A stretch of DNA of 64,000 nt, taken from contig JAVHOW010000016.1 of the NCBI GenBank assembly GCA_036170235.1, positions 5,511 through 69,510 of the forward strand, written 5' to 3'. Within the stretch, counting starts at the first letter, position 1. Each line of letters opens with the position of its first letter. The notes under the pieces are model-generated. The model did no database searches. It worked only from the letters and a program-made list of their open reading frames with translations, and was not told the origin of the DNA. The stretch is from Minisyncoccota bacterium (GTDB lineage Bacteria; Patescibacteriota; Minisyncoccia; Phycocordibacterales; PALSA-1337). The position numbers were made by a program, and so were the translations under genes. Of this stretch, positions 3,403 through 60,656 are shown in pieces.

Positions 3403-3430
3403 TCGCTAGTAGTGTGAAAATGAGTGAACA

Positions 3431-3463
3431 AAAAAATCACCGTTTATGACGGTGATTTTTTTG
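3431..3463. terminator. Rho-independent terminator hairpin.
   Basis: aaaaaatcaccgtttatgacggtgattttttt. GC-containing stem followed by a T-run, between convergent genes. Confidence 0.6.
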
Positions 3464-3530
3464 TTGTGCCGGCTGGGACAATGTTTGGAACTTTTTTAGC
3501 TTGTAATATGGCTAAATAAGAAATACCTAG

Positions 3531-7170: not shown

Positions 7171-7351
7171 AGTAGTAAATCGGCGCGATGCGCGCTTGCA
7201 CATTAGAGAATAGAGTGTAGCAGAAATGATGAAGTTTGACAATCACTATTTCTATATGGTGATGTCATGAGTCATTATGTATTTTATTTCTATCTACAAG
7301 GATTTATTGTCTAAAAATGTTCCGCGCGCTATAGTAAACAAATCTAACTTT

Positions 7352-9604
7352 ATGCCTAAAACACCATTCACCCTCGCAACGCCATTCGAGCCTGCTGGCG
7401 ACCAGCCGAAGGCAATTTCCGCATTGACGGATGGTCTCGCTAAAGGTTTTGACCGCCAGACATTGCTTGGGGTGACTGGGTCCGGTAAAACCTTCACCGC
7501 TGCAAATGTCATAGCTCAATATGGCAAACCTACGCTCATAATTGCTCACAACAAAACATTGGCTGCCCAACTCGCGCAAGAGTATCGAGAATTTTTTCCA
7601 AATAACGCCGTGCATTATTTTGTTTCTTATTATGACTACTATCAGCCAGAAGCATATATTCCGTCGAGTGATACTTATATCGAAAAAGAGGCGATGATAA
7701 ATGAAGAGATCGAACGTCTGCGCCACGCTTCGACGCAAGCACTTTTGACGCGCAAGGATGTCATCATTGTGGCGTCAGTTTCCTGTATTTATGGTTTGGG
7801 CAGTCCAGAAGAATATGAAAAAGTTAATTTGAAATTGAAAGTCGGCATGGAACTTTCGCGCGCGGAACTTATTCGCAAATTGATTGACATCCATTTCGAG
7901 CGCACGACTGCTGATCTTACGTCTGGTCAATTTCGCGCTATTGGAAACACTGTGGAAATCATGCCAGTGAACGAGAAGACTATTTATCGGTTGGAATACG
8001 GAGGTGACACCTCCGGAGGTAGCACCTCGATTGCCACTATTACTGAACTGGATCCTGTTTCAAGATCGGTTCGTAATGGTAGCTTAGGGACTTCCTCGCC
8101 AGCATTACTTGAACCACGGACTATTTTCATTTTTCCAGCAAAGCATTTCATTTCTAGTGATGAACAAAGTGCGCGTGCTTACAAAACTATTCAAGCAGAA
8201 TTGACAGATCGACTCAAGGTTCTGGAGAAATCAGGAAAATTGTTGGAAGCAGAGCGTTTGAAGCGTCGGGTCAAATACGATCTTTCTATGATTAAAGAAA
8301 TTGGTTACACAAACGGTATCGAAAATTACTCTCGTCATTTTTCTGGAAAAATGCCAGGCGAGCCACCGGATTCTCTGCTTTCATATTTTCCATCGACTAC
8401 GCTCGGGACAGGTCCGAATGCCAAGAAAGTTCCTGATTTTCTGACTATTATTGATGAGTCTCACGTTACAATTCCACAATTGAATGGAATGTATGCTGGA
8501 GATTTTTCGCGTAAGGACACATTAGTCGAACACGGTTTCAGATTACCATCTGCAAAAGATAATAGGCCGTTAAAGTTTGCTGAATTTCTGGAGCGCGTTG
8601 GTCCGATAATTTATACTTCGGCAACGCCGGGAAAATATGAGGCAGAGACAAACAGCCAGGTTGTTGAGCAAGTCATCCGTCCGACGGGTCTCGTCGACCC
8701 GGTCGTGGAGATACGACCTATAAGGGAGTCGTCACATGTTCGTACGGAGCGACTTTCGGAGCGAGCGAAGGCGAGTGAGAAGGAGGTGTCGGCTGAGCAC
8801 AGCCGAACACCGTTCGCGGAGGGCGAACATGTGACGACTCCCTACATGGGTCAAATCTTTGACTTCATCGCCGAAGCTGAAAAAACTATTGCAAAAGGCG
8901 ACCGCGTGCTCGCTACCACATTAACCAAAAAAATGGCCGAAGACCTGTCCGAATTCCTTAAGGAAAAAAATATCAAAGCCTCCTATTTGCACAGTGACGT
9001 CAAGACTATCGAGCGCATAAATATTCTGACTGATTTTCGCAAAGGGAAGTACGATATTCTGGTTGGCGTTAACTTGCTTCGTGAAGGTCTGGATCTGCCA
9101 GAAGTTTCTCTCATAGGCATTCTCGACGCTGACAAAGAAGGTTTCCTCCGTTCCGAAACCGCGCTAATTCAAACTATCGGTCGCGCCGCTCGTAACGCCG
9201 CTGGTAAAGTGATTCTCTACGCCGACAATCTCACTGGTTCAATGGATCGCGCTATCAAGGAGACTAACCGTCGTCGCGCTATCCAGGTGGCATATAATAC
9301 CAAACATGGCATTACCCCGCAGACTATTATCAAAGCCATCCACGACATCACTGATCAGTTGCGCACCAAACATGACAAAGCCGTCAACGAGCTCGTCAAG
9401 ATTGATGAAGAACTGGCTCGCACCAATCCGAAGTTGTTGATGAAACAAAAGCAAGCGGCCATGGAGGAGGCGGTCAAGATGTTGGATTTCGAGACCGCGG
9501 CGTTGGTGAGGGATGAACTTATTGCGATTGAAGAGAAGTGGGGGAGGGAGAAAAAAGCGGTGGCGAAGAAGTTGAAGGAGGAGGGGAGGAAAACTAAAAT
9601 CTAG
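7352..9604 (+). CDS. uvrB: Excinuclease ABC subunit B, with two in-frame inserted palindromic elements.
   Basis: PAGDQP, Walker A GSGKT, the helicase motifs and a C-terminal UvrB/UvrC interaction coiled coil. Likely start is MPKTPF. Confidence 0.9.
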   Translation: MPKTPFTLATPFEPAGDQPKAISALTDGLAKGFDRQTLLGVTGSGKTFTAANVIAQYGKPTLIIAHNKTLAAQLAQEYREFFPNNAVHYFVSYYDYYQPEAYIPSSDTYIEKEAMINEEIERLRHASTQALLTRKDVIIVASVSCIYGLGSPEEYEKVNLKLKVGMELSRAELIRKLIDIHFERTTADLTSGQFRAIGNTVEIMPVNEKTIYRLEYGGDTSGGSTSIATITELDPVSRSVRNGSLGTSSPALLEPRTIFIFPAKHFISSDEQSARAYKTIQAELTDRLKVLEKSGKLLEAERLKRRVKYDLSMIKEIGYTNGIENYSRHFSGKMPGEPPDSLLSYFPSTTLGTGPNAKKVPDFLTIIDESHVTIPQLNGMYAGDFSRKDTLVEHGFRLPSAKDNRPLKFAEFLERVGPIIYTSATPGKYEAETNSQVVEQVIRPTGLVDPVVEIRPIRESSHVRTERLSERAKASEKEVSAEHSRTPFAEGEHVTTPYMGQIFDFIAEAEKTIAKGDRVLATTLTKKMAEDLSEFLKEKNIKASYLHSDVKTIERINILTDFRKGKYDILVGVNLLREGLDLPEVSLIGILDADKEGFLRSETALIQTIGRAARNAAGKVILYADNLTGSMDRAIKETNRRRAIQVAYNTKHGITPQTIIKAIHDITDQLRTKHDKAVNELVKIDEELARTNPKLLMKQKQAAMEEAVKMLDFETAALVRDELIAIEEKWGREKKAVAKKLKEEGRKTKI
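8000..8029 (+). repeat. Double mini-hairpin GGAGGTGACACCTCC GGAGGTAGCACCTCG, in-frame inside uvrB, encoding GGDTSGGSTS.
   Basis: Perfect 15-nt palindrome followed by a near-copy. It lies in a 17-aa region that is extra relative to E. coli UvrB, recalled from memory. Confidence 0.55.
8723..8843 (+). repeat. ~121-nt GC-rich palindromic element with 19-20-nt terminal inverted repeats, inserted in-frame in uvrB.
   Basis: TIRs gggagtcgtcacatgttcg / cgaacatgtgacgactccc. The core gactttcggagcgagcgaaggcgagtgagaaggagg... is ~85% identical to a copy in uvrA. It accounts for a ~40-aa insertion between the EVRP and RVLxTTLTK regions of UvrB. Confidence 0.75.
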
Positions 9605-14011: not shown

Positions 14012-16756
14012 ATGTCAGCTATGCGTAAACATAGTCCGGGAACTGGCGAAGAAAAGATCGTTGTGAAGGGCGCGCGGACGCACAACCTCAAGAATATTAC
14101 CGTCGAGATGCCGCGCAACACGATGATCGCCATTACAGGACTGTCTGGTTCTGGAAAATCTTCGTTGGCATTCGATACTATATTTGCCGAAGGGCAACGC
14201 AGGTACGTTGAATCTCTTTCCGCGTATGCACGTCAATTTTTGCACAAAATGCAGAAGCCTGATGTTGATGAGATTTCTGGGCTTTCGCCAGCTATTTCGA
14301 TTGATCAAAAATCACGCTCTAATAATCCACGTTCAACAGTCGCGACAATAACGGAAATTTATGACTATCTACGTATTCTTTTTGCGCGTGTTGGAAAACC
14401 ACATTGTCTGACTTGTGGACGCATCATTCATCGTATTTCTCAAGAAGAAATCTTAAATACTATTTTGCAGACAGTTACTACTCGCGCTACTCAAGCTAAA
14501 AAAGTTTATGGCGTGAATATCAGTGATGCCAAAATTCGTGTTTACGCGCCAGTCGTGGTTGGTCGTAAAGGTGAATACTATCAGATGCTTTATGATTTGC
14601 TTGGTAAAGGTTATGACCGTGTCAGAATTGATGGAAAAATTCAACGCTTGCGTGATCAGATTATTTTAGAGAAAAATAAAAAGCACGATATTGACGTGCT
14701 AGTTGATGAGATTTTCGTTTCTGAATTCAAAGATGCCAAGCAGTCTGGTAATGCGCGTGAGCGTCTGTCGGAGTCCATTGAACGAGCTGTGCATGAGGCG
14801 GAGGGACTGATAAGGATTGAGTATCCGTGGGCGACGGCGACTGGAGTGGGGGGAGGACATGCTCTCGAGACGACTTTCGGACCGAGCGAAGGCGAGGGAG
14901 AAGGAGGCGCCGGCCGAGCACGGACGGACGCCGTTCGTCGAGGGAGCAAGTCCTCCCCCCACTCTGAAGTTGCCAACGTCAACGAAACCCTAATGTCCGT
15001 AAAATTCATGTGTCCATACGACGGTTTTTCATATCCAGAAATTGAGCCACGATTATTTTCATTCAATTCTCCATATGGCGCTTGTGCCGCTTGCAACGGT
15101 CTTGGTACTGAAGGATTATTCGCCGAAACAGTTTGCAAGGTCTGTAACGGTGTTCGTCTGCGTGATGAAGCTTTGCACGTGAAGATTGATGGCAAAAATA
15201 TCGTTAATACCACCTCATTATCTATTGAAAAAGCCATTAAATATTTTAATGAAATAAAATTAACCGACGCTGAAAAAGAAATTTCCAAAGTTGTATTAAA
15301 GGAAATTCAAGCGCGCCTCTCGTTTATGGTAAATGTCGGTATTGAATATCTGACTCTAGACCGCCGTGCCAACACGCTTTCTGGTGGTGAAGCACAGCGC
15401 ATTCGTCTAGCTTCGCAATTGGGATCTGGACTTGTTGGCGCGCTCTATGTGCTCGATGAACCAACTATCGGTTTACATCAACATGACAATGATCGCTTGA
15501 TTCAGACACTTCTTCGTCTACGCGATCTCGGCAACACTATTATCGTTGTTGAACATGATGAAGATACGATGTTCGCTTCTGATTACATTATTGATATTGG
15601 TCCTGGCGCTGGCGTGCATGGTGGAGAAGTAGTTGTATCTGGATATTTGGATGATTTACTTATGGCAAAAAAGAATACCTCAGGTTCACTCACTCTCGCG
15701 TATTTGCGTGGTGAGGAAAAAATTGAGATACCAAAAACTCGTCGTGAACCAAAAGGTAAAATCATGGTTCGAGGTGGAAATGTATTCAATATTAAAAATA
15801 TGGATGTTGACATACCTTTGGGTTGTTTGAATGTTATCACCGGTGTTTCTGGTTCAGGAAAGTCATCATTGATGTATGAAATTTTGCATAGAAATTTAGC
15901 GGCTCGTTTCGAAATGCGCCATCGCAGTAATGAAACAATCAATTGCAAAGAATTCAAAGGCTCTGAATATGTTGGTCGCGTGATTTTGATAGACCAATCT
16001 CCGATCGGTCGGACGCCACGATCCAATCCCGCTACTTACACGGGAGCATGGACTCACGTTCGCGACCTGTTCGCCTCAGAACCAGAATCACGTGCCCGCG
16101 GTTGGGGAGCGGGCAGATTTTCATTCAATCGCCCCGGCGGTCGCTGTGAGGCATGCGAAGGTAATGGTGAGATTGCCGTGGAGATGCACTTTTTGCCAAC
16201 AGTTTATGTTCTTTGTGATGTTTGTAATGGCAAGCGTTTTACCAAAGAAACTCTCGAGATAAAATTTCGCAAGAAAAATATTCATGAAGTGCTGGAACTG
16301 ACGATTGAAGAGGCGATTGAATTTTTCAAAGATATTCCAGCGGTTGAAGATCGTCTGCAAAGTATGATGGATGTTGGTTTGGGTTATGTAAAATTGGGAC
16401 AATCTGCAACAACTTTATCTGGTGGTGAAGCGCAACGCGTGAAGATTTCCTCGGAGTTATATCGCGCGCATTTGCAGAAAACGATTTATTTGCTTGATGA
16501 GCCGACAGTTGGTCTTCACTATGAAGATGTAAAAAAATTGATTGATATTTTGCAAAAATTGGTGGATAAAGGGAATACGGTCGTGGTTATTGAACACAAC
16601 TTGGATCTCGTAAAAAATGCTGACTACGTTATCGATATTGGTCCAGATGGCGGTGAACGTGGTGGTAAAATCGTGGCGAAGGGGACTCCAGAGGATGTTG
16701 CCATGAGCAAGACGAGTTATACTGGAAAATATTTGAAGAAGATGTTGAGGAAGTAG
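14012..16756 (+). CDS. uvrA: Excinuclease ABC subunit A, with an in-frame inserted palindromic element.
   Basis: Two ABC ATPase modules, [14 protein letters not shown] and [10 protein letters not shown]. Zinc fingers CxxC. LSGGEAQR signature twice. Confidence 0.92.
14844..14964 (+). repeat. ~121-nt GC-rich palindromic element with 15-nt terminal inverted repeats, inserted in-frame in uvrA.
   Basis: TIRs gagtggggggaggac / gtcctccccccactc. The core gactttcggaccgagcgaaggcgagggagaaggagg... is homologous to the uvrB copy. It encodes the Gly/Glu/Arg-rich segment [42 protein letters not shown]. Confidence 0.75.
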
Positions 16757-20301: not shown

Positions 20302-20340
20302 AAAAAACCACCCTGAGTTTTTATCGAAGGGTGGTTTTTT
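20302..20340. terminator. Bidirectional rho-independent terminator. Copy 1 of an identical 39-nt hairpin repeat.
   Basis: aaaaaaccaccctgagtttttatcgaagggtggtttttt between convergent units. Its reverse complement is identical to 60616..60656. Confidence 0.7.
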
Positions 20341-20360
20341 GATAGTGAGAGCAACAAATA

Positions 20361-23262: not shown

Positions 23263-23562
23263 ATGAAACTCCAAACACATCTCGAAAACCTACGCGCAAA
23301 ACCAGAACATATCCGCAAAAGGATAGCTTTTTGGTCATCATTCGGAATTACTGCAATTATCTTTGCATTTTGGCTGGGTTCATTTTCTATTACTGGAAGT
23401 ACGGCAAGTGGTGCCGTGGCTTCTGCGGTCTCAAAAGCTGGTAGTCCTGGAAGCTCGCTGATTGCAGGCGTCGGAAACTTTTTTGTTGATATAAAGGAGA
23501 TGCTTTTTGGTGCGAAGAAGATCAAATATAGTGAGGTTGTGGTGACGCCGGGGAGTAAATAG
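23263..23562 (+). CDS. Hypothetical small membrane protein.
   Basis: One TM helix. The stop is immediately followed by a REP palindrome. Confidence 0.35.
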   Translation: MKLQTHLENLRAKPEHIRKRIAFWSSFGITAIIFAFWLGSFSITGSTASGAVASAVSKAGSPGSSLIAGVGNFFVDIKEMLFGAKKIKYSEVVVTPGSK

Positions 23563-24121
23563 TCCAAGGTCCGACCTTGGATAGGATGTTATTTTGTGGT
23601 CTCTTTTCACCCAAGTAATCTTTGAAACTTGAGAACTCATAGACCTTCGAATATTCGACTGCTCTATCATAGTGCTCATATCTTACTTCTCTCAACATAT
23701 CTGGTTCTTCAATACCAAAAGGGTTTAAATGTATATATTCAATAATACGAGCTAAATATTGATCGGTATCAATAGTTTTTGCTTTATATTTTCCTTGAAA
23801 TATTGTGCCCGAGTGATTATATTTTTTATTGAAATACATTACATACGCGGTACAGAGTTTTCTAACAAATTGTTCAACTTGCTGATCAGTTTCGACCATA
23901 AGTCCCAAATGAAAATGATTTGGCATAAGACAATACGAGAATATATCCACGAGATTTTGTTGTCGGTCTATAGAAAAAATATCAGATTTATTCAATTTGA
24001 AAACTAGAGGCTTTGAATCATTCGCTATATACAACAAACAGACAAAGCGTTGATAATCGCTCTTATCATTGAATATAGGCGCTTTATGAGCACCGCGATT
24101 GTAGATATGGTAGTAAGGCAT
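23522..24121 (-). mobile_element. IS200/IS605-like Y1 (HUH) transposase of the REP-associated tyrosine transposase (RAYT) type, flanked by two REP-like palindromes.
   Basis: YHIYNRGAHKAPIF and LMPNHFHLGL give the HUH motif as HFH plus a catalytic Tyr region. REP copies lie at 23563 and 24126 in inverted arrangement around it. The likely start MPYY is just inside the upstream REP. The track ORF extends to 24178 with GTG. Confidence 0.7.
23563..23581. repeat. REP-like 19-bp perfect palindrome TCCAAGGTCCGACCTTGGA, copy 1, at the 3' side of the RAYT gene.
   Basis: Exact palindrome seen in the sequence. Confidence 0.9.
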
Positions 24122-24125
24122 TTGT

Positions 24126-24144
24126 TCCAAGGTCAGACCTTGGA
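24126..24144. repeat. REP-like palindrome TCCAAGGTCAGACCTTGGA, copy 2, at the 5' side of the RAYT gene.
   Basis: Exact palindrome with a variable centre base. Confidence 0.9.
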
Positions 24145-24153
24145 CAACATATT

Positions 24154-24208
24154 CTATCAAACCGGAATGAAGAAACACTGAAGAAACGATAAAGAAGTAA
24201 TGAAGAAA
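24154..24208. repeat. ~45-bp repeat tatcaaaccRgaatgaagaaacactgaagaaacgataaRgaagtaatgaaga, copy A.
   Basis: Near-identical to 28475..28525 and 44725..44765. It lies at the 5' end of the minus-strand RAYT unit. Confidence 0.7.
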
Positions 24209-24496: not shown

Positions 24497-24699
24497 TAAG
24501 GCATTCTTATGGAATCGTGCGGTGATAGAATCGGTTCTGTTGTCAATGGTTTTTGTTGATCTTAATTAGACGTGCCGGTAGTTTCATAGTTGACCTTTAA
24601 TTTTTTCTTATTTCTACTATGTATATTCTCATCTAATACACACAATGTCAAGCTGACACCACACCTTATTTTTGCTACAATTAAGTGGTAAAATAATTT

Positions 24700-24718
24700 T
24701 CCAAGGTCGGACCTTGGA
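24700..24718. repeat. REP-like palindrome TCCAAGGTCGGACCTTGGA, copy 3, 8 nt upstream of the gyrA start codon.
   Basis: Exact palindrome overlapping the expected RBS region of gyrA. Confidence 0.9.
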
Positions 24719-24725
24719 GTGATTC

Positions 24726-28373: not shown

Positions 28374-28474
28374 AGTATTATCTGTTCACAAAAATGGAAG
28401 AATTGTGCTTCATGACATGTCACCATACTGATATTAATAAATGGATATGTCGACACATAACCTTATATACCGTA

Positions 28475-28525
28475 TCAAATCGAAATGAAGAAACACTGAA
28501 GAAACGATAAAGAAGTAATGAAGAT
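28475..28525. repeat. ~45-bp repeat, copy B, between the RR stop and the HK start.
   Basis: tatcaaatcgaaatgaagaaacactgaagaaacgataaagaagtaatgaaga. Confidence 0.7.
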
Positions 28526-30924: not shown

Positions 30925-32112
30925 ATGGCAGCAGAATTCAATCGCACAAAGCCACACGTTAACGTTGGTACCATCGGACACGTTGACCACGGCAAAACTA
31001 CGCTCACCGCTTCTATCCTTGCAGTTCAGGCCAAGAAAGGTCTTGCAAAGGACAAGTCTTATTCAGATATCGCCAAGGGTGGTACTGTTCGTGACGCGTC
31101 AAAGATCGTTACTATTTCTCTAGCTCACGTTGAGTATGAGACACCTGTTCGTCACTACGCTCACATCGACGCTCCAGGTCACGCTGACTATATCAAGAAC
31201 ATGATTACCGGTGCCGCTCAAATGGACGGTGCTATTCTCGTCGTTTCCGCTCTTGATGGTGTGATGCCACAGACTCGCGAACATATCCTTCTTGCAAAGC
31301 AAGTTGGTGTTCCAAAAGTTTTGGTTTTTCTTAACAAGTGTGACATGGTTGCCGAAGCAGATTTGCTCGACCTAGTTGAAGAAGAGGTTCGTGAACTCCT
31401 CACTAAGAACGGCTTTGATGGCAAGGAGGCTCCAGTTATCCGTGGTTCAGCATTGAAGGCTCTCGAAGGTGATCCAGTATGGACAGTCAAGATTGACGAG
31501 CTCATGAATGCTCTCGATACCTTCATCCCTATGCCAGTTCGTGATATCGACAAGCCATTCCTCATGCCGATCGAAGACATTTTCTCTATCGAAGGACGTG
31601 GAACTGTGGTTACTGGTCGTATCGAACGCGGTCAAGTCAAGGTTGGTGACGAAGTTGAGATTATCGGCTTCCGTGATACCGTAAAGACTACTATTACTGG
31701 TATCGAAATGTTCAACAAGCAGCTCAAGGAAGGTATTGCCGGAGACAACGCTGGACTCCTTCTCCGAGGTACTGCAAAGGATGACGTTTCTCGCGGTCAG
31801 GTTTTGGCCAAGACCGGTTCCGTCAAGCCTCATACCGAATTTGAGTCAGAAGTATACGTTTTGAAGAAAGAAGAAGGTGGTCGCCACACTCCATTCTTCA
31901 CTGGATATAAGCCTCAATTCTATATTCGTACTACAGACGTTACTGGTGAAGTAACCCTCCCTGAAAAGGTTGAAATGGTTATGCCAGGTGACACGATCAC
32001 TTTCAAAGTCAAACTCGTTGCTCCAGTTGCTCTCGAAGCTCAAATGCGTTTCGCCGTCCGTGAAGGAGGCAAGACCGTTGGTGCTGGAGTTATAACGAAG
32101 GTGGTAGCGTAA
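30925..32112 (+). CDS. tuf: Elongation factor Tu.
   Basis: [22 protein letters not shown]. 395 aa. Confidence 0.97.
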
Positions 32113-32120
32113 TAGATCCC

Positions 32121-32516
32121 ATGGTTACAGAACATAAAACAATTAAAAAAGAGACTCACGCCAAGGTTCCTCGCGCACCTCGTGCCAAGAAGGTCAAGGC
32201 TGTAGGTGAGGCACCACATCTCCGTATCCGTGTTCGTGCTTATGAGCACAAGATTCTCGATGCATCATTGAAACAGATTATGGATACAGCCGCTCGTTAT
32301 GACGCGGAGATCCACGGTCCAGTTCCATTGCCGACCGAGATCAAGAAGTACACGGTCAACCGCTCTTCCTTTATTGACAAGAATAGCCGTGAACAATTCG
32401 AAATGCGCGTTCACAAGAGACTAATAGATATTATTAATCCCAATCCGAAGGTCATCGAAGCTTTGACGAATCTAAGTCTACCATCAGGGGTGAACATAGA
32501 TGTGAAGATGATGTAG
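32121..32516 (+). CDS. rpsJ: 30S ribosomal protein S10 with a ~30-aa basic N-terminal extension.
   Basis: The core RIRVRAYEHKILD...GPVPLPT is S10. The N-terminal extension is KKETHAKVPRAPRAKKVKAV. Confidence 0.9.
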   Translation: MVTEHKTIKKETHAKVPRAPRAKKVKAVGEAPHLRIRVRAYEHKILDASLKQIMDTAARYDAEIHGPVPLPTEIKKYTVNRSSFIDKNSREQFEMRVHKRLIDIINPNPKVIEALTNLSLPSGVNIDVKMM

Positions 32517-32690
32517 TGTGATGGTGATGGCGCAGTGAACTTTGATTTTATGAGCCGAGAACTTGTCTGAGCGGAGTAACGCTCCAAACAAAATGGGAAT
32601 CGCCACTAATCCCTGTAACATTTTGTTTGGAGCGTACGTCGCGAGTCTCGCAGGCGAAATAAAATTAAAGTTCACTGCGCCATCACACAC
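32517..32690. repeat. MITE-like ~170-bp element in the rpsJ-rplC spacer with ~30-bp terminal inverted repeats and nested internal hairpins.
   Basis: 5' arm tgatggcgcagtgaactttgattttat (32525-32551) versus 3' arm ataaaattaaagttcactgcgccatca (32659-32685), with 1 mismatch. Internal stem gctccaaacaaaatg...cattttgtttggagcg. gcgagtctcgc hairpin. Confidence 0.7.
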
Positions 32691-32705
32691 CAATTCGTAA
32701 ATAAC

Positions 32706-33326
32706 ATGAAATTCATTCTTGGAAGAAAACTGAATATGACCCAAATCTTTGATGCCAAAGGTGCAGCATTACCTGTGACTGCTGTTTCTGTGCGTTCAAA
32801 TATTGTCACTCAAGTCCGTACCAAAGACACTGATGGTTATGAAGCTCTCCAAGTTGGAGAAGGTTCAAGGAACCCCGCTCGCATTGCCAAGCCCCAAAAA
32901 GGTCATTTCAAGGAGCTCGGTTCATTCGCTGCAGTATCTGAATTCCGAGATTATACTCCTGGAGCTGGTATGCCAACACTCAAAGTTGGTGACAAAGTTG
33001 AACTTTCACAGTTTGCCGCAGGTGACATGATTACAGTCAGTGCTATTTCCAAAGGTAAAGGTTTTCAAGGTGTGGTCAAGCGTCACGGTTTCGGTGGAGG
33101 TCCTCGCAGTCACGGTCAGAAACACTCCGAACGTGAGCCAGGTTCCATCGGTGGAGGCTTACGCACCCGCGTTCCAGTCGGTATGCGCATGGCCGGACGC
33201 ATGGGTTCTGATCGTATTACTGTGAAGAATTTGAAGGTCATTCACATTGACCCAGAGGAAAGTATCATGTATGTTTCTGGAGCTATTCCAGGCAAGAGAG
33301 GGACGTTGGTGGAGATTGTTGCATAA
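32706..33326 (+). CDS. rplC: 50S ribosomal protein L3.
   Basis: MKFILGRKLNMTQIFD start and L3 core. Confidence 0.95.
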   Translation: MKFILGRKLNMTQIFDAKGAALPVTAVSVRSNIVTQVRTKDTDGYEALQVGEGSRNPARIAKPQKGHFKELGSFAAVSEFRDYTPGAGMPTLKVGDKVELSQFAAGDMITVSAISKGKGFQGVVKRHGFGGGPRSHGQKHSEREPGSIGGGLRTRVPVGMRMAGRMGSDRITVKNLKVIHIDPEESIMYVSGAIPGKRGTLVEIVA

Positions 33327-34006: not shown

Positions 34007-34015
34007 ATTTAAATG

Positions 34016-34034
34016 TCCAAGGTCTGACCTTGGA
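34016..34034. repeat. REP-like palindrome TCCAAGGTCTGACCTTGGA, copy 5, in the rplD-rplW spacer.
   Basis: Exact palindrome between L4 and L23 inside the operon. Confidence 0.9.
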
Positions 34035-34048
34035 CAAACTAAACCACC

Positions 34049-35384: not shown

Positions 35385-35401
35385 GAAAAACACTTATACA
35401 C

Positions 35402-35429
35402 AAAAAATCGGTACATTACCGATTTTTTT
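35402..35429. terminator. Bidirectional terminator between rplB and the antisense HK.
   Basis: aaaaaatcggtacattaccgattttttt. Confidence 0.65.
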
Positions 35430-35539
35430 GTTATACTATCCTCCATGTTCAAATTTATAGTCAAAACAACCAAGAAAATATTCGATACGATCGCGCTTAT
35501 GATTGTTGACAAGAAGATAATTGGTTAAATTTTCAAAGT

Positions 35540-36424
35540 CTATCTAACTGCTTTCAATCTAATAGTGAATGTAGCACCGGTACCAATGCCAGCTGAATCT
35601 ACGCTTATATTTCCTTTGTGTCTCCGCGTAATAGCTTGTGCCAAGTATAGTCCAACACCAAACCCTTCAGTGTCTACAGCTTGAGCATTTTGAGCGCGGA
35701 AGAATTTGGTAAATACATGAGGTAAATCTTTTTTGTCTATGCCAATGCCATGATCTGTTATTGATATTATTGCTTCATGTCTAATTTTTTGCACAGTCAC
35801 GTCTACATTTTGACCAGGCGGGGTATACGCTAACGCATTCCCCAGTAAAGTTTGCAAGACGAACTCCATGCGTTGCGGATCTATCTTCACTTGAATGTCA
35901 GTCGAAGGGCATTGCACGGAAAAGAAAATATTTTTTTCATGAAATGCATCTTTTAAGATATTACTGACTGTACGTACAAATTCACAAAGATTTACTTTTT
36001 CAAAAGCATATGCGGAAACCGAGTTGTTGTCAGAATCCGTGAGCTCAATGAGTGTATTGGTAAGTTTGATGAGCTTTTCATTTGATTGTTGTATGTCCTG
36101 GATGCTTTGGTGTTTGTAGGAATCTTGTTCAGATTTTAACAGTTCTTCCGATACCCACTTTACTTGAGTGAGTGGCGTGCGAAACTTGTGAGCAATGATG
36201 GTGATGAATTCGTATTTGAGAGTTTCATTTGTCCGAAGTTTCTTAACTATAGTCCAGATAATAATACTCAAGAACAAAAGTATTGAAATTACAAATAGTG
36301 TCGCGATGAAGCCATTTTGAATAGAAATTGAGAAGATAAGACCAAATAATGATTTTTGATTTTCCATGGTGATAAGATGACTTACTATAAGTATATCATA
36401 TGCCTGCTGAAGTGAGCGCGTCAT
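35540..36424 (-). CDS. Orphan membrane-anchored sensor histidine kinase, antisense within the ribosomal protein cluster.
   Basis: H-box HKFRTPLTQVKW, HATPase_c motifs (DHGIGI, GFGVGL), N-terminal TM. Confidence 0.8.
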   Translation of the reverse strand: MTRSLQQAYDILIVSHLITMENQKSLFGLIFSISIQNGFIATLFVISILLFLSIIIWTIVKKLRTNETLKYEFITIIAHKFRTPLTQVKWVSEELLKSEQDSYKHQSIQDIQQSNEKLIKLTNTLIELTDSDNNSVSAYAFEKVNLCEFVRTVSNILKDAFHEKNIFFSVQCPSTDIQVKIDPQRMEFVLQTLLGNALAYTPPGQNVDVTVQKIRHEAIISITDHGIGIDKKDLPHVFTKFFRAQNAQAVDTEGFGVGLYLAQAITRRHKGNISVDSAGIGTGATFTIRLKAVR

Positions 36425-40511: not shown

Positions 40512-41588
40512 TTAAATCCCACTCGTCGTAGTACTCATAACCTGCCCTGAAGTCACAGTATTCCCACTAGCATCCACGGACTGGACCTTGAAATAGTAAG
40601 CTGTACTTGTAGCCAATCCCATGACTGAAATGGAGTGGTTCAGTGTTAGTGCACTATTGGTGATGAATGAAGTCGTACTTGCATTCACATCCAAAGGATT
40701 TGTACTCGAGTAGAACACCTTTGAAGTTGCGAGCTCATCAGTTGTCCAAACAATAGTTGTGGTTGAAGCGCCTGGAGTTGCAGTTAGAGCACTAATAACT
40801 GGAGGTGTGACATCAGCTGGAACAATTACACTGCCAGTATGAGCAGAGAATGTCGATGAAGTGGTCACGTTGCCAGATGTATCAGTTGATTCAATGACAA
40901 GGTAATAAGTCGTATTTGGTGTAAGTCCTGACAACGTAAGCAAGTGAGTCTTGGTAGTACTTGCATTGGAAACATACGAAGTCGTGCTTGCATTCAACAC
41001 AACAGGAAGAATTGTTGAATAATAGACGCGATCGGTTGTATTTTCATTTGTTTTCCAACCGACTTTGATGGTTGAAGTTCCGAGAACAGTCACAACGTTA
41101 CTGATGACTGGAACTTTGGTATCAGCCGATGGCGAGGAATTATTGCCATGGAACTTCTTATTGATACCGAATGGTAACCAGCAATTTAAAACATTGGTGT
41201 CAGAAGTACCATTATTCTTTATCCAACCAGGTGCGACCAGATGACCGTATGCCTTGAAACATTTGCCGAATGCAGAGTTTTTATTTGAATTTGAAGACGA
41301 ATCTTTTTCTGATTTTGATTCAGATTCATGTGAATTTGACCTTGTAGAAGTTGAAATATGAGAATTTAAATTGTTGGACTTTTTATCATGCTCAACTTCA
41401 CTATCTATATGATTCGAATTGGAATTTGAAGTAGAAACTGTTACCGAACGCTCGACACGGTTTTTGCCGTGGTCATTATTATTTTCTTTTTCATTCTTAT
41501 TATTTTCTTTAGCAAAACTAACTAGGGGACTCATGACAAGAGCGAGTGCGAGTGTGCCAATGGCGAAAGAGGTAATGTAATTTTTCAT
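40512..41588 (-). CDS. Secreted protein with a signal peptide, a His/Ser/Asn-rich low-complexity region and two FN3-like domains.
   Basis: Signal peptide. Repeated ...TVTSSTFSAHTG / TTYYLVIESTDTSGN and AYYFKVQSVDASGN motifs. Confidence 0.6.
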   Translation of the reverse strand: MKNYITSFAIGTLALALVMSPLVSFAKENNKNEKENNNDHGKNRVERSVTVSTSNSNSNHIDSEVEHDKKSNNLNSHISTSTRSNSHESESKSEKDSSSNSNKNSAFGKCFKAYGHLVAPGWIKNNGTSDTNVLNCWLPFGINKKFHGNNSSPSADTKVPVISNVVTVLGTSTIKVGWKTNENTTDRVYYSTILPVVLNASTTSYVSNASTTKTHLLTLSGLTPNTTYYLVIESTDTSGNVTTSSTFSAHTGSVIVPADVTPPVISALTATPGASTTTIVWTTDELATSKVFYSSTNPLDVNASTTSFITNSALTLNHSISVMGLATSTAYYFKVQSVDASGNTVTSGQVMSTTTSGI

Positions 41589-41807
41589 AAAAATTGTTAT
41601 GTGTAATTAATTTATAATCTACTTATAGTACTTTGTAATATTTGTCAGCTTAATAAAAGCCAACAGATTATATAAACGGACTAGAAACATAAACCTTACA
41701 TCGACACAACTGCACATTTATTGTATATTCTATTAGCACTCAACCTATCAGGAATTGCTGAAATTCGCAGAAAACGTAAGAATAGCGCCATTCATTCGTT
41801 ACACATC

Positions 41808-42413
41808 ATGAATACCGATAATCATATAAACAAGCTCAGAAGCACCTTTACTGACATATACAACACAGAGGCAGATTCTTTGTTTCGTTTTTGTCTTATT
41901 CGAGTCAGCGATCGAGAACAAGCGCTTGATTTGGTTCAAGAAATATTCACTCGCTTTTGGCAGACAATGAATCAAGAAGGTCGGCACATAGACTATCCGC
42001 GAGCTTTTCTTTTCACAGTCGCACGGAATGCTATCATTGATTGGTATCGCAAAAAGAAAAGTATTTCTTTGGAAAGCATGGCTGATCCTGAAACAGATGA
42101 ACCGTATGAAGCAATTCAAGATTCAGATCTAATGGATAGTAAATTGGAAGGCGAGGGGCGATTCCTGATTTCTGCCATAAGTAAATTGAGTTCTGGTCAC
42201 CGCGACGCTATCTATCTCCGATTTGTTGAAGGATTGTCACCTCCAGAAATTGCCAAGATCTTGGGGATATCAACCAACGCAACATCAGTTAGAATTACCA
42301 GAGGAATTGAAGAATTACGGAAATTGACAGGATATGACATTGAGATCGATGGTGGAGATAATTTTTCTAAAGAAGGAGGTGCGGATACAGCAGATAAATT
42401 AGAGTCAAAATAA
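41808..42413 (+). CDS. ECF (sigma-70 family group 4) RNA polymerase sigma factor.
   Basis: Region 2 DLVQEIFTRFW and region 4 HTH ...EIAKILGISTNATSVRITRG. Likely start is MNTDN. The track ORF starts at 41721. Confidence 0.8.
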   Translation: MNTDNHINKLRSTFTDIYNTEADSLFRFCLIRVSDREQALDLVQEIFTRFWQTMNQEGRHIDYPRAFLFTVARNAIIDWYRKKKSISLESMADPETDEPYEAIQDSDLMDSKLEGEGRFLISAISKLSSGHRDAIYLRFVEGLSPPEIAKILGISTNATSVRITRGIEELRKLTGYDIEIDGGDNFSKEGGADTADKLESK

Positions 42414-42417
42414 AAAC

Positions 42418-43509
42418 ATGAAAGACACACGATTCAACAAAGCAATAAAAGATATAAAGAATATATCCATGACATCTGCGGAAAAGCGAATGGTCTTTGA
42501 ATGTGTGATGAAGACTACGCCAATTAAAAGTACTTGGACTGTGTATTCTTTTGGTAAGTGGATACAGACGCATCGCTCAATTTCAGCTTTAGTGTTTATT
42601 GTAATTGTTATTTCGGCGGGAAATTCTGCCGTATTAGCCTCACGTAACACACTTCCTGGTGACACGCTTTATCCGATCAAAGTTAATATGGTTGAACCGA
42701 TTCGCGTTGCCTTTGCTCCAACTCCAAGGATTAAGGCGGAGATTCAGACTGAATTGGTACAGAGTCGTTTGCAAGAAGCAGAAACCTTGGCGGCGCGAGG
42801 TCAGCTCAATGATGGAAAAGAGCAAAGTTTAAATCAGCGTATTGATCAACAAGTTTCCGATTTGACTGCAAATATTAATGAAGTAAAAAAAACGTCACCT
42901 GAAAAAGCTGATGATATTAGTACGACGTTAGAAGCAAGCATCAATGCTCACACACGAATACTCGATGTTATTGCCGTCAATCGTGGTGAATCTCATAGTA
43001 ATAGCAAAGAAAATGGCGCCATTAACGTAGATGGAGCCGTTACGTCTGCTATGGTGGCATCGTCATCAATGTCAGAATCGACACAAACTTCAAGAACTTC
43101 TTTGAAACTTAATAAAAAGTCAGAATCAAAAGATGAGTCAAAGAACAATAAAAAGTATTCAAAAAGAAAAGAATCGGTGGAATCATTAATCCAATCAACA
43201 ACCGCTGATGTTGCAGGTGCGACTACAACAGCTACATCTTCATTACTTCAGGAAACTATAGTTAATGATGCGCGTATCAACCTTGATCATGCCCAAGAGA
43301 AACTACAAGAAGCTCAAAATCATAATAGTAATGGTAATTCTAGTGAAGCCTATTCGGCACTGATTGATTCTGAACGCGCCACAAAAGAGGCGGCGTTGTT
43401 TATAAAGGCTACATCACGACTGGAGAAGGAGGTAAAAAATGAGGAGATAAATGCTTCTTCACATGGGAACAATAATGTCCAAGGTGGTCAATCGGGTAAA
43501 GTGGAATAA
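42418..43509 (+). CDS. Putative membrane anti-sigma factor (DUF5667-like) cotranscribed with the ECF sigma.
   Basis: Immediately downstream of sigma, with a 4-nt gap. Single TM helix and a coiled, low-complexity extracytoplasmic region. Confidence 0.5.
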   Translation: MKDTRFNKAIKDIKNISMTSAEKRMVFECVMKTTPIKSTWTVYSFGKWIQTHRSISALVFIVIVISAGNSAVLASRNTLPGDTLYPIKVNMVEPIRVAFAPTPRIKAEIQTELVQSRLQEAETLAARGQLNDGKEQSLNQRIDQQVSDLTANINEVKKTSPEKADDISTTLEASINAHTRILDVIAVNRGESHSNSKENGAINVDGAVTSAMVASSSMSESTQTSRTSLKLNKKSESKDESKNNKKYSKRKESVESLIQSTTADVAGATTTATSSLLQETIVNDARINLDHAQEKLQEAQNHNSNGNSSEAYSALIDSERATKEAALFIKATSRLEKEVKNEEINASSHGNNNVQGGQSGKVE

Positions 43510-43672
43510 GGCGGACTGACTAACCTCACATACATACTGCACTCATTAATCAAATGGGCGCAAAATGAAAATACACTCAAAATATCGAGGGATTAAGGGG
43601 TTTGTGGCGTAGATTGTTTTTGGGAACATTGAAATAAACCAACGAAAAAACCAATAAACGAAAGAGAAACTT

Positions 43673-44187
43673 ATGGCCCATGTTATCGAATGTAGATTTT
43701 GTGATGGTACATCATTAAACCATGACCACGATGAATGTGCTCAAGAGTTTGGTTTGAGCGTGGAGCGGAGAATTTTAGAACACACAACTAGATATCTTGA
43801 AACTCCTTTACCGCAAACGATTATTAACGAGCTCAAAAGTGATTGTTGGAAATGGTACCTGGAATATCTCGATCTTATATATTTCCACAAGTTAATTATT
43901 CCCATCTTATTCAAAATAGAACAGGATCACATTATGAAGATAGGAGATATAGAAGCCACATTGAACGCAAATCTGCTGATTTCGTTGTTTGTGATAAAAA
44001 GACATGTGTACCATGTTTAGTTATTGATATTGATGGAAGTGTACATAATAGATTAGATATACATGAAAAAGATGCAGAGATAAATCAAATACTTAATGCT
44101 ATTGGGTTACCAATATTACGTTTAACCAATGAAGATTCAAGGGATAGAGAACTTGTTAAAAACAAAGTCTTTGGAATGATTAAGTAG
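43673..44187 (+). pseudogene. Frameshifted DUF2726 (NERD/nuclease-related) gene with an N-terminal Cys/His cluster.
   Basis: Two overlapping ORFs, 43673..44020 and 43843..44187, in different frames. The second carries the DUF2726-like pattern SADFVVCDKKTCVPCLVIDIDGSVHNRLDIHEKDAEINQILNAIGLPILRL. Confidence 0.5.
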
Positions 44188-44304
44188 TCAACCAATAATG
44201 GGTAGTTATAAATTTGACTTTCGAAATATTTTTTGCTAATATAATTCAAGTTACTAGTCGCCAATAATTGGCAATTGAACCCGCCCACAAGGCGGGTTCC
44301 GACA

Positions 44305-44718
44305 TTACACCAAATCTTTCATGTACCTCCTTATTACCTGAAAATCTTCGTAAGAAATAGTGTCAATGTAGCGATCTAATCTTTTAGTGCTGACTAAGCG
44401 TAATTGATGGATCTTTGCCACACGAGTAATACCACCGCAAATAAAAGTGTAATGAATTCTGCTTTCTTTTGGCCACTTTTTTGTTGTGAGAGGAATAATC
44501 CATAAAGTCTCATCAGTAAATATACGAAATATAATCACTGGTCTGATAAAATTATCACCTTTACCATCCTCTTCACTACCGATATTGCAACCAAGAAAAC
44601 ACCACCAGATATCCCTTTCCTTGAATATGAGTCTTTCTTTTTTATCATGAACAATTTTTTTCTTTATGTTCCATGAATCAAAGTTCTTTATATGTTGTTT
44701 TGCTATTCTTGTATCCAT
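44305..44718 (-). CDS. PemK/MazF-family toxin (mRNA interferase-like).
   Basis: IRPVIIFRIFTDETLWIIPLTTKKW resembles the RPxlVls...vaPiTs core of MazF/PemK. No antitoxin is evident. Confidence 0.5.
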   Translation of the reverse strand: MDTRIAKQHIKNFDSWNIKKKIVHDKKERLIFKERDIWWCFLGCNIGSEEDGKGDNFIRPVIIFRIFTDETLWIIPLTTKKWPKESRIHYTFICGGITRVAKIHQLRLVSTKRLDRYIDTISYEDFQVIRRYMKDLV

Positions 44719-44724
44719 CTTCCA

Positions 44725-44765
44725 ACTCTATCAAACCAGAATGAAGAAACACTGAAGAAACGATA
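44725..44765. repeat. ~45-bp repeat, copy C, directly upstream of the PemK-like gene start.
   Basis: tatcaaaccagaatgaagaaacactgaagaaacgataagga. Confidence 0.7.
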
Positions 44766-45040
44766 AGGATGACCTTCTTTCAGCTTCGACTCGGATGTTG
44801 TGCCTGCGAGCAGTCACACATCCTCGCTTGCTGAAATAAAGAAACAGTGAAGATTTTCAAATTTGACTTCCTCACACCCATTTGTTAGTATATCCACACC
44901 TTCATAAACCAAGGTTTTTCATACAAAACAGTGATTGGAAGCACACCCTTAACGGGATAGCTAACCAGTCCTCATTTTTTTGAGAAAAATTGCAAGCAAG
45001 TCACTTGAAAGAGTGCGTCGCCAACCCAAAATATCACCTT

Positions 45041-52513: not shown

Positions 52514-53878
52514 ATGAAAATTTCCTACACACAACTGCAAACATACCTTGAAGACAAACTTCCAACACCAGAAAAGTTGGCTGACGCTTTCACTTTTCAT
52601 GCATTCGAAATCGAGAGTATGGAGAAGGAGGGTGACGATACCATTTTAGACATAAAAGTTTTGCCAGATCGCGCTTGTTACGCAAAATCTTATGAAGGTA
52701 TTGCGCGAGAAGTGTCGGCGATTCTTGGTTTGAAAAAGAAAGCAGAAAAAGTGAAAATTCCCGATTCGAAGCACACGATTACTGTTTCAATTTCTCAAAT
52801 AAATGAAGTGCTTGGTTCGGATATTTCACAAAAAGAAGCGGTTTCGATTTTGACTAGAATGGACATTAAAGTTACAGAAAAAGGGGATATTCTCGAGCTC
52901 TCAGTACCCTGCGATAGGCTTGATTTGCAGTCATGGCGCGATATTCCCGAGGAAGTTGGACGTATTTATGGTTATGACAAAATTAAGTCGATTTTGCCAA
53001 AAAATACTACATTTAAGCCTATTGTTGAGAAAGCATTTTATTACACTGAAAAGATCAAGAATATTCTAGTTTCTGCGGGTTTTTCCGAAGTTTACACCTA
53101 CAGTTTAGTTGCAAAAGGCGTGTATGAAATCGAGAAACCTTTGGCGGCTGATAAGAATCATTTGCGAACAAATCTGACTGATGGAATAGTGAAGTCGCTT
53201 GAGTTCAACGCACGAAATGCTGATTTGCTTGGCTTGGATGAGATTAAAATCTTTGAGATTGGTAAAGTGTTTACAAAAGATGGCGAGCACACTTCGTTGT
53301 GTGTTGGGATAAAAAATATCAAGAAAGCAAAAGGTGCTGAGTTGGCAAAAGAAAAAATTAAAAAAGTTCGCGACGAGGTGCTTAAAGTTCTTGAAGTAAA
53401 TGCGACTATTCTCTGCACGGTTGATGATTCTGGCGGAATTATTTCTTTGAATGTGGAAGCGGTTGGTATGACCAATAATTCAGACGGGATTTTCGAAATT
53501 AATCTTGATAAAGTGGTGGCGACGTTATCGGAGCCTAATTCGTATGCGGATCTCAATTTTAGTAAGGCTACAACGATAGAATACAAGAAGTTTTCTGTAT
53601 ATCCGTTCATTGTGCGCGATATAGCTGTTTTTGTCCAAGGTCCGACCTTGGACACTGAAGTTTGGTCTGTAATAGAAAAAGTTCTGAATGAGGTTGGTGC
53701 CGCGAATTTATTGGCTCATCATTCATTGTTCGATACATTCAAAAAAGATGGCAAAGTTTCGTACGCTTATAGGATGATATTCCAATCTATGGAAAAAACT
53801 CTAACAGATGACGAGGTTAATTCTATTATGGAAAAAATTTATGCTGAAATAAAAGGTAAGGGTTGGGAGGTGAGGTAA
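52514..53878 (+). CDS. pheT: Phenylalanine--tRNA ligase beta subunit, short form (454 aa).
   Basis: B1 N-terminus MKISYTQLQTYL. B3/4, B5 and the FDX-ACB C-terminus (FPFIVRDIAVFV). It contains a REP palindrome in-frame. Confidence 0.85.
   Translation: MKISYTQLQTYLEDKLPTPEKLADAFTFHAFEIESMEKEGDDTILDIKVLPDRACYAKSYEGIAREVSAILGLKKKAEKVKIPDSKHTITVSISQINEVLGSDISQKEAVSILTRMDIKVTEKGDILELSVPCDRLDLQSWRDIPEEVGRIYGYDKIKSILPKNTTFKPIVEKAFYYTEKIKNILVSAGFSEVYTYSLVAKGVYEIEKPLAADKNHLRTNLTDGIVKSLEFNARNADLLGLDEIKIFEIGKVFTKDGEHTSLCVGIKNIKKAKGAELAKEKIKKVRDEVLKVLEVNATILCTVDDSGGIISLNVEAVGMTNNSDGIFEINLDKVVATLSEPNSYADLNFSKATTIEYKKFSVYPFIVRDIAVFVQGPTLDTEVWSVIEKVLNEVGAANLLAHHSLFDTFKKDGKVSYAYRMIFQSMEKTLTDDEVNSIMEKIYAEIKGKGWEVR
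53634..53652. repeat. REP-like palindrome TCCAAGGTCCGACCTTGGA, copy 6, inside the pheT coding sequence (encodes VQGPTLD).
   Basis: Exact 19-mer within the ORF. The ORF length is unchanged relative to the expected PheT spacing. Confidence 0.9.
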
Positions 53879-56869: not shown

Positions 56870-56875
56870 TAAATT

Positions 56876-56904
56876 AAAAATACCCTTGAGCAAGGGTATT
56901 TTTA
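56876..56904. terminator. Bidirectional terminator between gyrB and hsp20.
   Basis: aaaaatacccttgagcaagggtattttta. Confidence 0.65.
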
Positions 56905-56908
56905 ATTC

Positions 56909-60598: not shown

Positions 60599-60615
60599 TT
60601 ATTTAACATCTAAAT

Positions 60616-60656
60616 CAAAAAACCACCCTTCGATAAAAACTCAGGGTGGTTTTTTT
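60616..60656. terminator. Bidirectional terminator. Copy 2 of the identical 39-nt hairpin repeat, in inverted orientation relative to 20302.
   Basis: aaaaaaccacccttcgataaaaactcagggtggttttttt. Confidence 0.7.

Follow-up and report, generated by a model that had tools for sequence, protein, structure and literature searches.

What is a long, nested hairpin doing between the genes for ribosomal proteins S10 (rpsJ) and L3 (rplC)? The question is raised by a 64,000-nt stretch of DNA (the window; contig JAVHOW010000016.1, positions 5,511 to 69,510) from a Paceibacteria/Parcubacteria genome of the candidate phyla radiation (CPR, Patescibacteria), whose named best L3 relatives are Candidatus Pacebacteria, Candidatus Taylorbacteria, Paceibacterota and "Patescibacteria group". 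The spacer between the two genes in the window, 189 nt from the end of the rpsJ stop codon at 32516 to the rplC start codon at 32706, holds a 173-nt palindromic element, here called D. A reading made earlier from the letters alone (the sequence-only reading) had given the spacer the same length, with which the coordinates agree, and had offered two interpretations: a MITE (miniature inverted-repeat transposable element), or a cis-regulatory RNA such as an autoregulatory site for a ribosomal protein (r-protein). Comparison of the junction across relatives leads us to regard D as an orphan, lineage-specific, non-coding palindromic insertion of the kind represented by MITEs and by hairpin-forming doublets (REPINs) of REP (repetitive extragenic palindromic) sequences, a reading in which we place middling confidence.

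Anatomy of the element

The nested hairpin with inverted repeats of ~30 bp and one mismatch, as first described from the letters, is borne out by inverted-repeat search and folding (coordinates of the parts are collected in Table 1). The core pairing of the outer arms (32524-32551 with 32659-32686) spans 28 nt at 96% complementarity and can be extended to about 35 nt; these are the longest inverted-repeat arms at 96% complementarity within the 64-kb window, and their sole mismatch, G-T, becomes a G-U pair in + strand RNA. An extra outer pairing of 9 bp (32516-32524 with 32680-32688) is shifted in register by a 6-nt tandem duplication, TGATGG (32519-32524 and 32525-32530), and pairing in the hairpin begins at the last base (G) of the rpsJ TAG codon. 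Inside stands a perfect 17-bp stem, whose loop carries a 4-bp apical mini-stem in the fold. For the region 32505-32710 the minimum free energy (MFE) of the + strand RNA is -93.7 kcal/mol, compared with -48.2 ± 4.1 for shuffled sequences (z = -11.0; 0 of 200 shuffles as good), and the - strand reaches -86.7 kcal/mol (z = -10.1). Because the identical sequence is present in two Logan assemblies made independently of each other from separate SRA runs (L001 and L002; L-numbers are labels of the fetched loci, mostly relatives), the hairpin is not an assembly artefact. The only open reading frames (ORFs) across the element are two reverse-strand readings of 58 and 86 aa, which are taken as spurious.

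D is probably composite, a perfect 57-nt hairpin nested in an older, longer one. The A-rich leader that separates the element from the rplC start codon is probably a homologue of the short spacer of the ancestor, which ends in CGAATACTGAC. A derivation of the left arm from the 3' coding end of the S10 gene (19 nt at 74%) was considered and rejected, since 2-3 chance matches are estimated for the region. Tandem duplications are found in these spacers, namely the 6-nt TGATGG of the window (32519-32530) and one of 18 nt by the rplC start in L107 (689-706), and they point to replication slippage at hairpins.

The junction in close relatives

The rpsJ-rplC junction was gathered from 60 distinct relatives, among which the close clade comprises lineages whose L3 is 91-97% identical to that of the window. 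At least seven states of the junction, the empty one included, are found among lineages with L3 at least 91% identical. The empty state (L104/L105) is a 19-nt spacer, TAG aaacgatagaaatactgac ATG, and a deletion remnant of 28 nt is seen in L123/L124. Occupied junctions carry hairpin A (80 nt; L100-103, L106 and L108, and L107 with its additional 18-nt tandem duplication), A' (92 nt; L118), E (67 nt; L125), a 79-nt hairpin (L119), a nested hairpin of 156 nt (L120-122), B (84 nt; L098, the nearest relative, L3 97%), C (98 nt; L099) or, in the 189-nt spacer of the window, D. Hairpins have been gained, lost and replaced at this site within the clade.

A, A', E, B and the hairpins of L119 and L120, together with the remnant of L123, form one evolving family (z = 3.9-11 in local alignments against dinucleotide shuffles), whose hairpin-bearing members begin with TTGAAA 1-8 nt past the stop codon. 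D and C are similar to none of the close-clade hairpins, the alignments of D scoring at shuffle level, and because D has no homologue, covariation analysis of it is impossible. Within the family, A (L100) and A' (L118) are orthologous at 91% identity; the differences between them are one compensatory change from G-C to A-T, a shift of register by G-U pairing and alterations of the loop, none of which disrupts a stem; the 5' arms of A, E, B, L119 and L120 are significantly similar, yet each 3' arm pairs with its own partner. Automatic alignment of five related clade hairpins (RNAalifold) gave no usable consensus (-3.7 kcal/mol), the low-complexity arms being misaligned. In L120 the 33-nt 3' arm repeats a 5' segment in inverted form at 88% identity, and L119 carries this 5' segment (25 nt, 96%) without a partner; because L120 pairs a segment that is unpaired in L119, an arm has been gained or lost in place.

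These states speak against the second of the two earlier interpretations, a conserved cis-regulatory or autoregulatory RNA. At this site the lineages with L3 91-97% identical have either nothing or sequence unrelated to D, no conserved, covarying leader is found at the orthologous site (D has no significant similarity to any close-clade state), and an Rfam scan of the whole window at the gathering threshold finds no family for the element. Several individual candidates were rejected: a MIR2630 plant miRNA precursor found in the spacer with Rfam E-values allowed up to 10 (27 bits against a gathering score of 144, spurious); C/D snoRNAs (E = 5.5 and 5.8, chance level); a TIGR-Tas unit (PMC12045711), D being a single unit without tandem copies and the 36 window ORFs scanned by Pfam including no Nop-domain protein; and an integron attC site, GTTCACT being unlike the GTTRRRY core on sequence alone.

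Expanded junctions and sister hairpins across Paceibacteria

The premise that the S10 and L3 genes are normally adjacent holds for some of the relatives and fails for as many: the spacer is at most 30 nt in 27 of 60 distinct loci, 31-59 nt in 6, 60-500 nt in 22 and more than 500 nt, with inserted genes, in 5, so that 27 of the 60 reach at least 60 nt. Expansion to at least 60 nt affects 45% of S10-L3, 37% of tuf-S10 and 37% of L3-L4 junctions and is rarer downstream (L4-L23 9%, L23-L2 17%, S3-L16 16%). About half of the expanded spacers contain exact stems of at least 12 bp, up to 23 bp, compared with 8-11 bp reached in shuffled controls. Expansions of tuf-S10 and S10-L3 are positively associated (both 16, tuf-S10 only 7, S10-L3 only 9, neither 14), no expanded junction whatsoever is present in 9 of 46 loci, and stems of at least 12 bp occur in 22% of non-ribosomal co-directional gaps versus 26% of gaps in the r-protein cluster. 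Because expansions associate positively and long stems are about as frequent in non-ribosomal gaps, the data point to hairpin DNA as a genome-wide load and not a junction-specific device. Two narrower ideas are thereby rejected, that one boundary hairpin is needed (expansions co-occur instead of substituting) and that the phenomenon is specific to r-protein operons (non-ribosomal gaps are similar). Strand asymmetry, used as a test for selection on the RNA, favoured the + strand in 16 and the - strand in 8 of 24 spacers (Wilcoxon p = 0.08), and perfect palindromes show none.

Sister hairpins at these junctions are dispersed repeats. The palindrome of L063 stands after rpsJ and again after rplN, the two copies differing symmetrically (compensatory changes); the element of L048 is found four times in L066 and twice in L061, as REP doublets in which each arm is itself a palindrome; and other hairpins are present in five copies (L022), at least four (L027) and two (L019). 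The multicopy hairpins lie mostly in gaps between called ORFs, and several begin 1-3 nt after a stop codon. Hairpin C, which occupies the S10-L3 spacer of L099, has copies 78-82% identical in the tuf-S10 and L3-L4 spacers of L120, and neither the L099 nor the L120 copies have target-site duplications (TSDs). Because the C family occupies three junctions in two close relatives, palindromic elements move between r-protein junctions in this lineage.

Other contents were seen at the same junction. In several other lineages 0.6-3.9 kb are inserted between rpsJ and rplC. A 67-nt segment is shared at 94% identity by the S10-L3 spacers of distant lineages (L056 1188-1254 and L080 5509-5575, the latter equal to L081 3460-3526) and holds a hairpin with a compensatory change (CTACCGGAG...CTCCGGTAG versus CTATCGGAG...CTCCGATAG), which makes it a candidate structured RNA; the long spacers of L056, L080, L027, L067, L077 and L034 match no Rfam family.

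A Y1 transposase and the REP-like palindrome flanking it

The window encodes a Y1 tyrosine transposase of the IS200/RAYT-like type (RAYT, REP-associated tyrosine transposase), whose best NCBIfam model is NF047646, "REP-associated tyrosine transposase" (E = 1e-10, with a score of 41.7 bits that lies below the 80-bit cutoff). A 21-nt REP-like palindrome, GTCCAAGGTCNGACCTTGGAC, is present on both sides of the gene (24125-24145 and 23562-23582) and in six copies in the window altogether (23562, 24125, 24699, 29312, 34015 and 53633) versus 0 expected by chance; one of these stands between rplD and rplW, in the operon that holds D. A RAYT gene flanked by REPs is the classical REP/RAYT arrangement (PMC2817692, PMC3116915). 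The enzyme is a possible mobilising agent for palindromic repeats in this genome; the palindrome could equally be a protein operator site.

Among the other copies of GTCCAAGGTCNGACCTTGGAC, that at 24699-24719 stands 7 nt upstream of the gyrA start and that at 53633-53653 lies within the pheT reading frame, and a related core, AGGTCNGACCT, occurs in the repeat families of L061 and L066. A separate direct repeat of 40-52 nt (ATCAAACCGGAATGAAGAAACACTGAAGAAACGATAAAGAAGTAATGAAGA, + strand; 24155-24206, 28473-28524 and 44727-44766) is found just upstream of three minus-strand genes, which encode the Y1 transposase, a histidine kinase and a MazF toxin. Relatives keep this repeat (L098 7279-7318 and 11896-11947, L101 1566-1593), which could serve as a leader or promoter common to the genes or else be a mobile module.

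Is D itself a mobile element?

In favour of the MITE interpretation stand the class of thing to which D would belong, the sister hairpins being multicopy and mobile and a Y1 transposase with REPs being at hand, and features of D itself: terminal inverted repeats (TIRs), small size and the lack of a transposase ORF. That D and the C family are without flanking TSDs agrees with Y1 transposition, which creates none.

A series of results weighs on the other side. The search for further copies of the TIRs, which the sequence-only reading had proposed, yielded none in any of the collections. No second copy of D was found in the window, and none in 1.19 Mb of fetched loci beyond L001/L002 (blastn, word size 8-9). 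An exact 18-mer of the outer arm has 15 single matches, none of them paired, in 185,579 species-representative genomes, a collection that excludes the window's own genome and for which ~17 matches are estimated for a random 18-mer; in viral contigs this 18-mer has 0 matches and the inner stem 9 single chance matches. In none of the relatives does the element occur at a different site. The flanks (GATGTA, ahead of the G that opens the element, and ACCAAT) share no direct repeat, and comparison with the empty site of L104 likewise shows no TSD. No parental insertion sequence (IS) with the ends of D was found among the window ORFs checked, where the sole transposase is of the Y1 type, without TIRs. 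GTCCAAGGTCNGACCTTGGAC is absent from 32516-32688 even at 3 mismatches, blastn shows no similarity between D and the REP, and D is not built of two inverted copies of the transposase-associated REP. Finally, the persistence of the A/A'/E/B/L119/L120 lineage at this site with co-varying arms hints that a hairpin is possibly selected here and not merely tolerated.

Because no second copy was found in the data searched, the membership of D in a MITE family is unproven, and because its arms lack the REP motif that flanks the Y1 gene, the link between the two is circumstantial. The alternatives originally posed were other copies, which would mark a MITE, or a conserved structure in relatives, which would mark a regulatory RNA; what is seen is a third outcome, no other copies and no conserved structure.

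Comparison with known systems

REPIN and REP-RAYT systems (PMC3116915, PMC2817692) resemble D in being non-coding hairpin formers of ~100-200 nt that are extragenic, lack TSDs and are co-transcribed in operons. They resemble the window in its RAYT-like Y1 gene flanked by REP, and the junction hairpins of L048, L066 and L061 are true REP doublets with palindromic half-sites. D differs from REPINs in that its arms are not palindromic REP units, do not match the transposase-flanking REP and are known from one copy. The Correia elements of Neisseria (Correia repeat enclosed elements, CREE; also NEMIS; PMC2649163), with a length of 100-160 bp, terminal inverted repeats of ~26 bp around a core and insertion between operon genes, are also like D, and as transcribed hairpins that are bound or cleaved by RNase III and alter the expression of neighbours they offer the best functional analogy. 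Correia elements have a TA target duplication, a site for integration host factor (IHF) and hundreds of near-identical copies; none of these was seen for D, and there is no sequence similarity. Classical IS-derived MITEs (PMC3184786) share with D the TIRs, the small size and the non-coding, intergenic character, and differ from it in TSDs, additional copies and a parental IS with matching TIRs, none of which was found for D. Template-switch hairpins (PMC8794818) have perfect stems that arise from single events and are unrelated between lineages, and the change of arm between L119 and L120 is like them; the events described are short, and D would require several large ones. In the library searched, no paper on REP/RAYT systems or in-frame palindromic elements in Patescibacteria was found.

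Proposed origin and likely consequences for the operon

On the reading of D as a palindromic insertion, the element would have landed in, or replaced, a short ancestral rpsJ-rplC spacer, its source being most likely the stock of palindromic repeats by which intergenic junctions of Paceibacteria are colonised; movement would probably have been as single strands by a Y1 (IS200/RAYT-type) transposase, leaving no TSD. We infer this mobility, the co-transcription and all of the RNA-level effects described below. The consensus scan finds no terminator and no promoter in the spacer or before rplC, and no T-run follows 32688. Since no terminator lies between tuf and rplB, transcription probably runs through D as part of the unit tuf-rpsJ-rplC-rplD-rplW-rplB, and in the mRNA D would form a rod of ~70 bp from the last base of the S10 stop codon to 17 nt before the L3 AUG.

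Translational coupling of S10 to L3 is known from E. coli (PMC12548453); across the 189-nt gap it would be abolished, and L3 would have to initiate independently from the A-rich unpaired leader. Tetramers like the Shine-Dalgarno sequence (GGAG, GAGG or AGGA at -20 to -4) precede no more than 2 of 38 genes, and the leaders have an A+T content of 73%, with 10% G, so the organism makes essentially no use of Shine-Dalgarno sequences; for this reason initiation should depend on unstructured A/U-rich leaders. The hairpins of relatives mostly leave about 9-15 nt unpaired before the AUG, and D leaves 17 nt, lengths that are consistent with selection for an accessible L3 start. REP sequences and Correia elements (PMC2649163) provide analogies for the fate of such a hairpin in mRNA. 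By such analogy the rod is perhaps a barrier to 3' exonucleases or a substrate of RNase III that shifts the ratio of tuf/rpsJ to rplC. D would be tolerated, not required.

Alternative explanations

Three functions of the structure in the mRNA were weighed as rivals of the insertion reading. The first, an intrinsic terminator or attenuator ending the tuf-rpsJ transcript, would explain why a very stable hairpin stands directly after the stop codon, and EF-Tu is needed in excess over ribosomal proteins; but the stem is followed by ACCAATTCGTAAATAAC and not by a T-run, the scan finds neither a terminator nor a promoter-like site before rplC, and the recognisable terminators of the window (3427-3465, 20302-20343, 35395-35435 and 56872-56907) are stems of 8-12 bp with T-runs, which leaves this role very improbable. 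Less credible still is an autoregulatory site, an rRNA mimic bound by S10, L3 or L4, for which the location in an r-protein operon is the sole supporting point: conservation is lacking already at an L3 identity of 97%, against the conservation of known r-protein leaders over at least family-level clades (PMC3616713), no Rfam leader matches, and near-perfect long palindromes are unlike protein-binding rRNA mimics. A more serious rival, though in our judgement an improbable one, is a structure-selected intercistronic "hairpin slot", in which a stem-loop after rpsJ or elsewhere in tuf-rpsJ-rplC-rplD is kept as a fold with its sequence free, D being the present occupant of an mRNA processing or stability site that partitions tuf/rpsJ from downstream expression. 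The differences between A and A' (a compensatory change, a G-U shift and loop changes, none disrupting a stem), the homologous 5' arms with their own matching 3' arms (A, E, B, L119 and L120), the concentration of expansions at tuf-S10, S10-L3 and L3-L4 (37-45% versus 9-17% downstream) and the 9-15 nt spared by most hairpins before the AUG argue for it. It is opposed by close relatives with no hairpin (L104/105 and L123/124) and the loci with no expanded junction at all, by expansions that are positively associated instead of compensatory, by a + strand folding advantage that is not significant, by long stems about equally common in non-ribosomal gaps and by the unusable consensus fold of five variants.

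The same idea can be extended so that the opening junctions of the tuf-S10 operon, and rpsJ-rplC in particular, keep a hairpin either by compensatory or template-switch upkeep or by refilling with unrelated palindromic mobile DNA such as C and D; we find this version doubtful. If true, the slot would uncouple and differentially stabilise tuf/rpsJ and downstream r-protein mRNA in bacteria without Shine-Dalgarno-based control, and would be a structure-only, sequence-free regulatory element repeatedly recruited from selfish DNA. The remaining rival dispenses with mobility: D would have arisen locally and de novo by template-switch errors of replication, in which neighbouring sequence is copied by fold-back, with its arms made in situ, followed by neutral persistence. 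This comports with the orphan status of D and its lack of a TSD, with the gain or loss of an arm in place between L119 and L120, with the small tandem duplications in the spacers of the window (6 nt) and of L107 (18 nt) and with the documentation of template switching for RNA hairpins (PMC8794818). We nevertheless judge it unlikely, since two perfect palindromes (28-35 and 17 bp) and 107 nt of novel sequence would call for several large events, a related precursor with a single arm was not found, and sister hairpins of the close clade are demonstrably dispersed repeats.

Hairpin elements in uvrA and uvrB

A second nested-hairpin family is present in the window within coding genes, with one copy each in uvrB and uvrA (Table 1). 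The two copies have a common 78-nt core at 85% identity, each with its own complementary arms of 20-30 nt, and give Y-shaped folds (z about -8 to -9) in which the sense strand is more stable by 13-15 kcal/mol. Both are in-frame and are translated in different frames, and they coincide exactly with insertions relative to solved structures (UvrB 484-521, ~38 aa; UvrA 268-318, ~50 aa); the nearest UvrB homologues are without the insert, and the element has no Rfam match. Palindromic elements are known from Rickettsia (Rickettsia palindromic elements, RPEs). The likeness of RPEs extends only to the uvrA/uvrB element, an in-frame palindromic repeat in coding genes read in different frames; the S10-L3 element is intergenic, unlike RPEs, and has no sequence relation to them. 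The RPE-like behaviour of the uvrA/uvrB element shows that hairpin elements have been recently inserted and tolerated in this genome. In TsaD (60697-61989; 430 aa) the Pfam match is split into two stretches, which suggests another insertion in a housekeeping protein.

Genomic setting

The operon around D and the other features are listed in Table 1. The r-protein cluster of the window is broken by unrelated genes (35540-36424 and 40512-44718): a reverse-strand histidine kinase gene, kept throughout the close clade, lies between rplB and rpsS, and genes for an Fn3-like protein, a sigma-70 factor, a DUF5667 protein and a MazF toxin follow farther along. Between rplC and rplD of L098 (10566-11885) there are a gene of the DUF695 family and an HTH/Gp49 toxin-antitoxin pair. 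A diversity-generating retroelement (bAvd and reverse transcriptase) lies directly upstream of tuf in the 95%-identity relatives L100 (2381-3931), L101 (4977-6526), L102 and L103; the window has no retroelement at this position. Two terminator-type hairpins of 42 nt in the window (20302-20343 and 60614-60655; AAAAAACCACCC...GGGTGGTTTTTT) are 100% identical, 40 kb apart and in opposite orientation.

Table 1. Positions of the element, its parts and associated features in the window.
Feature	Position	Strand	Basis or remark
Nested-hairpin copy in uvrB (ORF 7277-9604)	8723-8843		
Nested-hairpin copy in uvrA (ORF 14012-16756)	14844-14964		
IS200/RAYT-like Y1 tyrosine transposase, about 199 aa	23522..24121	-	Pfam PF01797, E = 2.4e-10
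tuf	30925-32112		upstream neighbour of rpsJ
rpsJ (ribosomal protein S10, 131 aa)	32121..32516	+	ORF/translation; Pfam Ribosomal_S10 on identical product
Whole nested palindromic hairpin (D), 173 nt	32516..32688	+	inverted-repeat search, fold; identical in L001 and L002
Left outer arm, 36 nt, including TGATGG tandem duplication	32516..32551	+	inverted-repeat pairs, sequence reading
Left linker, partly complementary to right linker (imperfect middle of rod)	32552..32578	+	MFE structure
Inner hairpin, perfect 17-bp stem (32579-32595 / 32619-32635), 23-nt loop 32596-32618	32579..32635	+	
Right linker	32636..32658	+	fold
Right outer arm, 30 nt, one G-T mismatch to left arm (32544 vs 32666)	32659..32688	+	
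Unpaired A-rich leader, 17 nt, ACCAATTCGTAAATAAC	32689..32705	+	before rplC start codon
rplC (ribosomal protein L3, 206 aa)	32706..33326	+	directly 3' of 189-nt spacer
GTCCAAGGTCNGACCTTGGAC copy in rplD-rplW spacer	34015..34035		same operon; orthologous copy L098 12730-12756
rplD, rplW, rplB	last ends at 35384		after rplC
T-run terminator hairpin	35395-35435		after rplB; convergent histidine-kinase gene follows

Significance

D alone matters little, being one more palindromic insertion in a spacer; more notable are two by-products of the analysis, the turnover of r-protein junctions and the in-frame element of uvrA and uvrB. For annotation it follows that hairpins of this sort should not be named riboswitches or r-protein leaders without evidence of conservation. 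For the biology of the group, the comparison shows that in these reduced CPR genomes even the operon conserved most strongly is a zone of turnover for hairpin-forming DNA.

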